Positions 15,000 to 50,046 of a stretch of 64,000 nucleotides of DNA are shown piece by piece. The position numbers were made by a program, and so were the translations under genes. The notes under the pieces were generated by a model. The model saw only the letters and a list, made by a program, of their open reading frames with translations. It was not told the DNA's origin and made no database searches. The stretch lies in assembly GCF_003790525.1 (NCBI RefSeq), contig NZ_CP033635.1. One strand, given 5' to 3'. This DNA comes from Escherichia coli. Its GTDB lineage: Bacteria > Pseudomonadota > Gammaproteobacteria > Enterobacterales > Enterobacteriaceae. Positions within the stretch are counted from its first letter, which is position 1. The number at the start of each line of letters is the position of its first letter.

Positions 15000-15145
15000 A
15001 TGCCTCTTAAGGTTTTCTTAAGGTTCTTCTGAAAGTAAAAAGCGCACAAAATGTACAAATGACGTTGATTGAGAACGATTTCAGTACGTGATTTTCTTAT
15101 TGTCGGGGGGAGTTTGAAGGGAGTTGTATGTCAAAGTGATGAAGA

Positions 15146-15418
15146 TTAATCTTCATCAAAACCAGAATTAAAGAGGGCGATAACGGCGGCCAGTGCTTCC
15201 TCTTCCTGTGGACCGGTCGCTTCAACTTCAATCTGCCGTCCTTTGGCAGAATCCAACATCAGCAGCGCAATAACGCTGTTGGCTTCAGCCTCGGTGCCTT
15301 CGTCATTACGTAACAGCACTTCAGCGTCAAAACCTTGCATTAATTCAAACAGCTTCATTGCAGGCCGGGCATGCATGCCCAGCTTGTTTGTGATTTCAAC
15401 AGTTTGCTTGACGGTCAT
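15146..15418 (-). CDS. npr: phosphocarrier protein NPr
   Basis: 90-aa [29 protein letters not shown]... Confidence 0.93.
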
Positions 15419-26889: not shown

Positions 26890-28149
<1,260 letters not shown>

Positions 28150-28196
28150 TTGTCTGAGAGCTGGCAGCCCCGTTCGCGGGGCTACCGCCAGACCAC

Positions 28197-28475
28197 TCAT
28201 TTTTTCGGTTTAGTGTAGCTACGCATCAACTGCGTTCTGTCGATAAACTCATGGGTCTGCGGATCATGGTAGCGAGATGGCCAGATAATCCAGGGGTCAG
28301 TTCCCAGGGCTTTCGCAATAATCATCTCTCCTTTCGGCCAGGGGCGCGATAATGCGTTCGCCAGCGTTGAGGAACTCAAACCATTTCTGCGAGATTCCGC
28401 CGCCATTGACGTTCCCTTCTTGCGCAAACCCGCAATGATGTCAGCGGGATGCCAGTCAATGAAATTACTTTCCAT
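28197..28475 (-). CDS. sfsB: Ner-like DNA-binding protein SfsB (Nlp)
   Basis: 92-aa ORF MESNFIDWHPADIIAGLRKKGTSMAAESRRNGLSSSTLANAL... Confidence 0.9.
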   Translation of the reverse strand: MESNFIDWHPADIIAGLRKKGTSMAAESRRNGLSSSTLANALSRPWPKGEMIIAKALGTDPWIIWPSRYHDPQTHEFIDRTQLMRSYTKPKK

Positions 28476-28703
28476 CTTTCCTCACTCCTTAAGTTAGTCG
28501 CTTTCATTCAGAACACTTCTTCTGTCGAGCATCACTATACTCCTGATGGCCTATTGCTCTAAAAAGTTCCTGTAAAGAGTGTGAATATTCAGAATATATA
28601 AAGATACATACACTGGTTTTTCAGGCGTTATTGCGCTGAATAAGTGTTTTTATGGAACTTATTGGAATCATCCCGCGCACTGCGCGGGATGAGGGGGAGG
28701 GGA

Positions 28704-29675
28704 TTAACGATCGCGTTGAACAGCGATGTGCGCGAGGCCGATGAGTGCTTCTCGCCACGGGGTGTCCGGGAGCACCTGTAACGCTGCGATGGCTTTGTCT
28801 GCTTCTTCCTCGGCACGCTGACGCGTCCATTCAAGAGATCCACAAGCGTTCATTGCTTCCAGAACCGGTTCCAGAAGATGGCGACCGTTACCCTGTTCGA
28901 TGGCGGTACGAATCATCTGTGCCTGTTCTGGTGTGCCATGATGCATTGCATGCAGCAGCGGCAGCGTCGGTTTACCTTCGTTCAGATCGTCGCCGATGTT
29001 TTTACCTAACTGTTCGCCATCGGCATTGTAATCGAGTAAATCGTCGATCAACTGGAAAGCAGTGCCGAGATAGCGCCCATAATCCTGCAGGCCTTTCTCC
29101 TCCTCCGGCGTACAGCCAGCCAGAATCCCGGAACACTGCGCGGCAGCCTCAAACAGACGCGCGGTTTTGCTATAGATAACGCGCATGTAGTTTTCTTCAG
29201 TGATGTCCGGATCGTTAACGTTCATCAGTTGCAGAACTTCACCTTCTGCGATGACGTTTACGGCTTCTGACATGACTTCCAGCACTTTGAGCGAGCCGAG
29301 GCTGGTCATCATCTGGAACGCGCGGGTATAAATAAAATCGCCTACCAGCACGCTGGCGGCATTGCCAAATGCGGCGTTGGCGGTAGCTTTACCCCTGCGC
29401 ATATCTGATTCATCCACAACGTCGTCGTGCAGCAGAGTCGCCGTGTGGATAAACTCGATCAGGGCAGCAATGGTGACATGCGCATTTCCCTCATAGCCAA
29501 CAGCTCGTGCAGCCAGTACAGCAATCATCGGACGAATACGTTTACCGCCGCCGCTGACGATGTAATAGCCTAACTGATTGATCAGTTGGACGTCGGAATT
29601 AAGCTGCTCAAGGATTGCCGCATTAACACCCGCCATATCTTGCGCGGTTAACTCATTGATTTTTTCTAAATTCAT
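28704..29675 (-). CDS. ispB: octaprenyl diphosphate synthase
   Basis: 323-aa ORF with DDxxD motifs (LLHDDVVDESD; IDDLLDY). Confidence 0.95.
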   Translation of the reverse strand: MNLEKINELTAQDMAGVNAAILEQLNSDVQLINQLGYYIVSGGGKRIRPMIAVLAARAVGYEGNAHVTIAALIEFIHTATLLHDDVVDESDMRRGKATANAAFGNAASVLVGDFIYTRAFQMMTSLGSLKVLEVMSEAVNVIAEGEVLQLMNVNDPDITEENYMRVIYSKTARLFEAAAQCSGILAGCTPEEEKGLQDYGRYLGTAFQLIDDLLDYNADGEQLGKNIGDDLNEGKPTLPLLHAMHHGTPEQAQMIRTAIEQGNGRHLLEPVLEAMNACGSLEWTRQRAEEEADKAIAALQVLPDTPWREALIGLAHIAVQRDR

Positions 29676-29832
29676 CGCAAAAGCCGGGCTTTTCGCCCCG
29701 ATTACCTTACTGTGAACAAAGGCAACTTAGGGTTTATGGTTAGGAATATAGGGTGATTGTACTGAAAAAATGGCACAGATAAACGTTACCGTACAAGTTG
29801 TGTTTTTTTTCTTCGTGTATTGACTGTAGCAC

Positions 29833-29861
29833 TTGTCAAAGGCGTGCGTTTTGCGTAATAT
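29833..29861 (+). promoter_or_regulatory. candidate sigma70 promoter of rplU-rpmA (TTGTCA, 17-nt spacer, TAATAT)
   Basis: Hexamer match about 70 nt upstream of rplU; motif only. Confidence 0.35.
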
Positions 29862-29897
29862 TCGCGCCCTATTGTGAATATTTATAGCGCACTCTGA

Positions 29898-30523
<626 letters not shown>

Positions 30524-30550
30524 GTTTTTCGCGTCCCGGTAACGGATGAA

Positions 30551-30578
30551 AGCCCCGCAACACGTTGCGGGGCTTTTT
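30551..30578 (+). terminator. intrinsic terminator after rpmA
   Basis: agccccgcaa-cacg-ttgcggggct hairpin followed by TTTTT. Confidence 0.75.
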
Positions 30579-50020: not shown

Positions 50021-50046
50021 AAAAAGGGGCTAACAGCCCCTTTTTT
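50021..50046 (+). terminator. hairpin with A-run and T-run flanks between infB and rbfA
   Basis: AAAAA-ggggc-taaca-gcccc-TTTTTT directly upstream of the rbfA ribosome-binding site. Confidence 0.55.

Follow-up and report, generated by a model that had tools for sequence, protein, structure and literature searches.

Rho-dependent transcripts of Escherichia coli end precisely at stable stem-loops that carry no U-rich sequence after them and no A-tract, with C exceeding G downstream, and such ends are made by PNPase and RNase II, which trim the RNA back to the structure (Dar and Sorek 2018). Of the described systems, this class of U-poor protective 3' stem-loops appears closest to a hairpin found just 3' of ispB in a 64-kb stretch of E. 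coli DNA (referred to here as the window). The ispB stem-loop is stable, the steady-state 3' end (mapped on the K-12 allele) lies directly downstream of it, its tail is low in U, no A-tract precedes it, and C exceeds G in the sequence that follows. Unlike the class, however, the hairpin is evolutionarily continuous with U-tract terminators of related genera, and the likeness is one of sequence and 3'-end features.

Two other well-known elements invite comparison. With canonical intrinsic terminators, the ispB hairpin shares a GC-rich stem, a short loop, a position after the stop codon, a 3' end within a few nucleotides of the stem, and an insulated downstream gene, but its tail, UUCCAAUAAG, is not a U-tract (3 U in 8 nt), a consensus scan did not call it, and the A-tract is lacking. 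With REP/BIME elements, it shares the character of an extragenic GC-rich palindrome 3' of a gene, able to protect mRNA 3' ends, whereas the ispB palindrome is single-copy, with one locus per E. coli genome, and is syntenic across an order. The ispB 3' end is already known in the sense that its terminus and fold are listed in a published supplementary table and its class is well described, and a literature search found no paper that discusses an ispB terminator.

RESULTS

A single-copy palindromic hairpin follows ispB

The first-pass annotation had described a perfect palindrome with an 11-bp stem and no U-tract, located 12 nt after the ispB stop codon in a 228-bp gap before sfsB, and the sequence is exactly so. 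The + strand at 28668-28692 reads TCATCCCGCGCACTGCGCGGGATGA, a perfect 25-nt palindrome in which a repeat search reported 12-nt arms, 100% complementary and separated by 1 nt; as RNA, this becomes an 11-bp stem with a 3-nt loop (Table 1). In the ispB transcript, the hairpin is UCAUCCCGCGC-AGU-GCGCGGGAUGA, with 8 G-C pairs in the 11-bp stem, and its K-12 homologue lies at NC_000913.3 3334692-3334716. The 101-nt context of the hairpin gave a fold z score of -5.5 against shuffles. The 11 nt of UCCCCUCCCCC intervene between the stop codon and the stem, which begins at the 12th nucleotide, and the ORF coordinates agree with a gap of 228 bp, which is 100% identical to the corresponding spacer of strain SC516. 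The RefSeq records hold no annotated feature inside this spacer.

Table 1. Features of the ispB-sfsB region in window coordinates
Feature	Position	Strand	Details
ispB CDS (octaprenyl diphosphate synthase)	28704..29675	-	323-aa ORF; ispB annotated at the identical locus in E. coli SC516 and K-12
ispB stop codon TAA	28706-28704	-	Part of the ispB CDS
Pyrimidine-rich spacer UCCCCUCCCCC, ispB stop to hairpin	28693..28703	-	11 nt; read from sequence
RNA hairpin	28668..28692	-	5' arm 28692-28682, loop AGU 28681-28679, 3' arm 28678-28668; 11 bp, -20.3 kcal/mol
U-poor conserved tail UUCCAAUAAGUUCC	28654..28667	-	Conservation 0.5-0.8 over 36 Enterobacteriaceae sequences
A/U-rich, G-poor region, candidate Rho-loading region	28588..28667	-	80 nt; 16 C, 9 G
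sfsB's own sigma-70 promoter TTTAGA-18-TATAGT	28534..28563	-	Promoter scan; 3' of the hairpin and separate from it
sfsB (nlp) CDS, co-oriented, 3' of ispB	28197..28475	-	ORF; annotated in SC516 and K-12

The hairpin palindrome is more than a chance occurrence. The window contains four distinct perfect palindromes with a stem of at least 11 bp (7 overlapping hits), compared to a mean of 0.14 in 100 dinucleotide shuffles. When up to 3 mismatches were allowed, the palindrome pattern occurred once in the window (0 expected), and a covariance model of the hairpin and its flanks matched the window at the hairpin site only. A 33-nt BLAST query was matched in 5,421 of 5,426 complete E. coli genomes, at a median of 2 places per genome. 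We read the two places as the opposite strands of one palindromic locus, since alleles with broken symmetry are matched at only 1 place. In about 2,200 E. coli genomes the best match was at least 99% identical to the hairpin allele of the window. Hence the search for further copies, which had been proposed as a check for a repeated motif, returned a single site in the window and one locus per E. coli genome. An assignment to the REP/BIME repeats was rejected, since many dispersed copies would be required and one site was found in the 64-kb window. An E-value scan of 28100-29900 against Rfam yielded chance-level matches only, none of them at the hairpin.

The downstream gene has its own promoter (Table 1), and the same hexamers, TTTAGA and TATAGT, were given as a constitutive promoter by Shimada 2014. 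The promoter is activated by BglJ-RcsB. The mapped site of this activator is centered 65-68 bp before the sfsB start and about 80 bp past the hairpin, and the idea that the hairpin is itself the BglJ-RcsB site was rejected for this reason. The ispB-sfsB spacer (28476-28703) is unusually polymorphic in E. coli. Over its 228 nt, an identity of at least 99% was found in 50 of 5,425 genomes and one of 90-95% in 5,287, and most differences fall after the hairpin tail and before the sfsB promoter block. In E. coli isolate 12 (NZ_CM194533.1), an IS1 element sits in the spacer right after the hairpin and tail and parts ispB from the sfsB promoter region.

The stem is maintained by compensatory changes

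The ispB locus was compared in 80 Enterobacterales species. All 80 have a strong hairpin (-11.7 to -30.8 kcal/mol) 3' of the ispB stop codon, mostly at a distance of 0-26 nt and at most 53 nt, and sfsB is the next or next-but-one gene in every one of them. The Enterobacteriaceae hairpins are homologous, with the core UCCCGCG...CGCGGGA, and in most of this family the stretch between stop codon and hairpin is C/U-rich. The loops of the different species measure 3 to 9 nt. The arms of the outer stem differ by paired substitutions. For example, UCAUCCC/GGGAUGA in E. coli corresponds to UUAUCCC/GGGAUAA in another Escherichia, to CUCCCCGC/GCGGGGAG and GUCUCCCUGCG/CGCAGGGAGAU in Enterobacter, to CUUUCCCG/CGGGAAAG in Phytobacter, and to UUAGCGCGCC/GGCGCGCUAA in Buttiauxella.

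Covariation was assessed on 34 sequences that had been aligned with MAFFT, blind to structure; the pairs of the E. coli hairpin were scored in this alignment, with 500 shuffles and a slid partner as controls. First, standard pairs were formed by 79% of the cells, compared to 70% in shuffled alignments and 33-54% with the partner slid. Second, 41 cells were changed on both sides, compared to 16.9 and 6-18, respectively. Third, the covariation score was 0.313, compared to 0.170 and 0.065-0.148, and none of the 500 shuffles reached the observed value. In an alignment fitted by the covariance model, a procedure that leans towards structure, pairs 4-10 were canonical in 100% of cases, and pairs 2, 3, 4, and 9 switched among CG, UA, AU, and GC. 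The same model-fitted alignment had 17 G·U pairs on the ispB-sense strand versus 3 C·A. RNAalifold predicted no structure on the plain MAFFT alignment, because the variable loop lengths shift the arms out of register; this register problem was met by the covariance model and by explicit pair counting on a second MAFFT alignment.

A similar asymmetry between the strands was found within E. coli. The sampled alleles differ from the window by A-to-G changes in the 3' arm (K-12, O114, D3, AB56, and FORC_028), by a U/C change in the loop, and by changes in the tail. Across these variants the sense hairpin stays at -19.3 to -20.3 kcal/mol, and in a double-variant allele the sense fold is -19.3 kcal/mol compared to -15.2 kcal/mol for the antisense fold. 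U·G pairing is kept by the natural variants only on the sense RNA, and in the K-12 and O114 alleles the DNA symmetry is broken while the RNA pairing is kept. Judged from these comparisons, the object under selection is the RNA hairpin in the ispB transcript, because an operator or a cruciform would not be expected to accept G·T but not A·C, an arm spacing of 3-9 nt, and compensatory evolution. An antisense function was rejected, as the copy transcribed from the + strand is followed by GGGGGAGGGG, which is not a U-tract, and as the natural variants weaken the antisense fold.

One laboratory mutation falls in the stem. In the macrophage-adapted K-12 clone F (PMC4709186, Table 2), G is replaced by A at a site given as "ispB/sfsB intergenic (131/-197)." Judged from -197 and the reference base, this site is +31 relative to ispB and coincides with the G of stem pair 5 (NC_000913.3 3334712, corresponding to 28672 in the window), and we take the printed "131" to stand for "+31." The change would weaken the predicted hairpin from -20.2 to -13.3 kcal/mol. 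It may be a passenger mutation, since the same clone has an rfaI::IS5 insertion, in a target that was struck in eight sequenced clones and was judged adaptive by the authors (PMC4709186).

In K-12, ispB transcripts end at the hairpin

The TRS tables (PMC10687069) contain the ispB 3' end. In Supplementary Data 3, based on RNAtag-seq in LB, a + strand terminus of ispB is classed as "Primary" and spans 3334716-3334727, with the dominant position at 3334721 and adjusted p values of 5e-41, 5e-51, and 2e-87; the same predicted hairpin is given there with -20.2 kcal/mol and a maximum U-tract of 2 (PMC10687069). Supplementary Data 2, which draws on a previously published data set, places the terminus at 3334715-3334724, dominant at 3334718 (PMC10687069). 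Since the K-12 stem ends at 3334716, the dominant positions follow its final base pair by 2 and 5 nt; they were mapped on the K-12 allele, not that of the window, and correspond by homology to 28666 and 28663. The coordinate register of these tables was checked on a canonical terminator (thrC) in the same sheet. Thus, in one study's analysis of two data sets, the primary 3' end of ispB transcripts in K-12 is at the hairpin, and the mapping does not refute the first-pass annotation, which had named 3' ends elsewhere as a refuting result. The ispB 3' end is absent from the 3'-end tables of Adams 2021 and from the TERMITe tables, which list fewer sites, and this may be due to low expression or to thresholds; ispB is absent also from the SMRT-Cappable-seq tables.

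Coverage changes markedly between the two genes. In Supplementary Data 4, read starts per nt were 0.47-0.53 for the ispB CDS and 0.06-0.11 for the sfsB CDS (PMC10687069), so that sfsB coverage in K-12 is 5- to 8-fold below that of ispB. From this difference, no more than roughly one fifth of ispB transcription could run on into sfsB, even on the assumption that sfsB lacked its own promoter. We conclude that the hairpin very probably defines and protects the 3' end of ispB mRNA, whichever mechanism releases the transcript, and put the probability of this reading at roughly 0.85 to 0.9.

The tail is not a U-tract in most Enterobacteriaceae

The GC-rich stem-loop just 3' of the gene on the transcribed strand is what an intrinsic terminator would show; the tail is not. 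Its first 8 nt in E. coli (UUCCAAUA) contain 3 U, with a longest run of 2, where a U-tract was defined as at least 5 U in 8 nt, and no A-tract was found upstream of the stem. A consensus terminator scan of 28100-29900 returned 0 terminator-like sites, a consequence of this low U count. Over the 80 nt that follow the hairpin, C exceeds G in 38 of 38 Enterobacteriaceae sequences, with an overall C/G ratio of 2.3.

The scan tool's own terminator criterion was then applied to the post-ispB hairpins of the 80 species, and the outcome differed between families. It was passed by 6 of 38 sequences in Enterobacteriaceae, 13 of 19 in Erwiniaceae, 6 of 13 in Yersiniaceae, 3 of 3 in Hafniaceae, 2 of 3 in Morganellaceae, 1 of 1 in Budviciaceae, and 0 of 5 in Pectobacteriaceae. 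Four of the six passing Enterobacteriaceae sequences are the homologous hairpin in four Citrobacter species, with tails AUUUUAUA or UUCUUAUA; the U-rich tails of Erwiniaceae, Hafniaceae, and Morganellaceae follow hairpins that are not homologous to that of E. coli. The E. coli tail is about 2 substitutions away from the Citrobacter tail. Because U-rich tails follow the hairpins of Citrobacter and of other families, the E. coli element looks like the descendant of a terminator whose U-tract has decayed in most Enterobacteriaceae.

Beyond its low U content, the tail has features of its own. It is complementary at 11 of 13 positions to GGAACUUUUUAGA (28558-28570), which belongs to the best-conserved block of the spacer, TTTACAGGAACTTTTTAGAGC; this block overlaps the sfsB -35 hexamer. 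The tail is conserved beyond what a simple unstructured Rho-loading region would need. It looks like two UCCA-UAA units. A CpxR box (GTAAA-N5-GTAAA) was considered in the tail and rejected, as the start-to-start spacing is 9 instead of 10, the half-sites match poorly, and a link in the literature was not found.

DISCUSSION

Release of the ispB transcript

Rho-dependent termination followed by exonuclease trimming back to the hairpin has, in our estimate, about an even chance of being the way in which this 3' end is made. We infer both Rho as the releasing factor and the trimming by exonucleases only from the features of the class described by Dar and Sorek 2018. RNA polymerase would leave ispB and transcribe the hairpin 11 nt after the stop codon. 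Classical intrinsic release of most polymerases at this point is improbable, because the tail is not a U-tract. Rho could load on the G-poor, C-over-G, unstructured RNA directly downstream of the hairpin and would halt transcription before or within the sfsB promoter region. The heterogeneous tails would be shortened by 3'-to-5' exonucleases (PNPase and RNase II) until the hairpin blocks them, so that the final 3' end would be precise and stable and situated a few nucleotides beyond the stem. Together, these steps would yield a defined and protected ispB message, as well as insulation of sfsB with its own BglJ-RcsB-activated promoter.

A weak but self-sufficient intrinsic terminator is a more tentative explanation. 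According to this alternative, the U-tract has decayed to UUCCAAUAAGUU, and a useful fraction of polymerases is nevertheless released at the site, possibly with help from NusA or NusG. The GC-rich stem and 3-nt loop just after the stop codon have the position and geometry of a terminator, and the same hairpin passes the scan criterion in the four Citrobacter species, in which the tail reads AUUUUAUAAG or UUCUUAUAAA, as do the post-ispB hairpins of several other families at the frequencies given above. The tail is also conserved across genera, as expected if release depends on it. The large drop in coverage into sfsB fits with release at the site, and the 3' ends 2-5 nt past the stem are in the same range as those of canonical terminators in the TRS table. 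This offset does not, however, discriminate between Rho with trimming and intrinsic release. Against intrinsic release, the first 8 nt are poor in U and failed the terminator scan, an upstream A-tract is lacking, C and G pairs would be present in the RNA:DNA hybrid where release takes place, and the conserved downstream bias of C over G would be left without explanation. The two mechanisms are not exclusive, and a weak intrinsic terminator is compatible with some Rho back-up downstream.

The first-pass annotation had preferred a 3' stabilizer or Rho-type stop to a textbook intrinsic terminator. The K-12 3' end 2-5 nt past the hairpin, the missing U-tract, and the C-over-G bias in all 38 Enterobacteriaceae sequences speak for that preference, and a textbook terminator is not what this tail resembles; the U-rich tails of Citrobacter and other families, however, leave room for a weak intrinsic terminator, so that the preference holds in part.

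Other roles for the hairpin

A different possibility, which we consider improbable, is that the hairpin and the tail UUCCA(A/G)UAAGUUCC form a dedicated regulatory 3'UTR module specific to Enterobacteriaceae and not a passive end. It is given a small chance because of the conservation of the tail, its complementarity to the sfsB -35 region, and the stem change in clone F. If true, the module could be bound by a protein or an RNA, or could pair with GGAACUUUUUAGA at the sfsB -35 region, and could tune either the stability of ispB mRNA, hence ubiquinone side-chain synthesis, or read-through into the regulator gene sfsB.

Slightly less probable still is a small RNA that derives from the ispB 3' end and has the hairpin as its terminator, or a regulatory 3'UTR element of the same origin. 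Sequence conservation of the tail motif would fit this reading, but the motif does not contain the long U-tail that is typical of Hfq-dependent sRNAs, and Rfam gave no match. Supplementary Data 4 of the TRS study (PMC10687069) cites two transcription start sites of Thomason 2015 at most 150 nt upstream of the terminus, at 3334625 and 3334698 on the + strand, whereas the promoter scan shows no promoter-like site before either position and ispB is no outlier in the 3'UTR-versus-CDS coverage test. The first start site corresponds to about 28760 in the window and falls within the ispB 3' end, and the second to about 28686, within the hairpin's 5' arm; both may reflect processing or noise.

A DNA operator, i.e., a symmetric site for a dimeric regulator, for example of sfsB or ispB, had been raised by the first-pass annotation and is very improbable: the DNA symmetry is perfect in the window strain and the palindrome precedes the sfsB promoter, about 150 bp from its start, but only one such locus was found in the window and in each E. 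coli genome, the arm spacing varies between species, the half-sites change by compensatory substitutions, K-12 and other alleles break the DNA symmetry and keep U·G pairs that form in the sense RNA only, and the activator of sfsB has its mapped site at -65 to -68, away from the hairpin.

Significance

The finding that the unannotated ispB-sfsB spacer holds the transcript-end hairpin of ispB matters little beyond annotation, where it is useful for drawing transcription-unit boundaries, with ispB and sfsB as separate units. It also provides a comparative example of a terminator hairpin that was kept by compensatory evolution across an order and lost its U-tract in one family, the Enterobacteriaceae, a pattern that would fit with intrinsic termination having given way to factor-dependent termination. 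In addition, the hairpin can serve as a test case for terminator predictors that demand U-tracts.

Other palindromes in the window

Three further perfect palindromes have a stem of 11 bp or more. The first (TGATGAAGATTAATCTTCATCA, 15137-15158) is AT-rich, measures 22 nt, and overlaps the stop end of an ORF of 90 aa on the minus strand, which is probably npr/ptsO; in the TRS tables, the primary terminus of K-12 npr is 15 nt past the npr stop (PMC10687069). The other two, at 30549-30576 and 50021-50045, are canonical U-tract terminators. One, AAAGCCCCGCAACACGTTGCGGGGCTTT, follows rpmA, and the other, AAAAAGGGGCTAACAGCCCCTTTTT, looks bidirectional because A and T tracts flank it on both sides.
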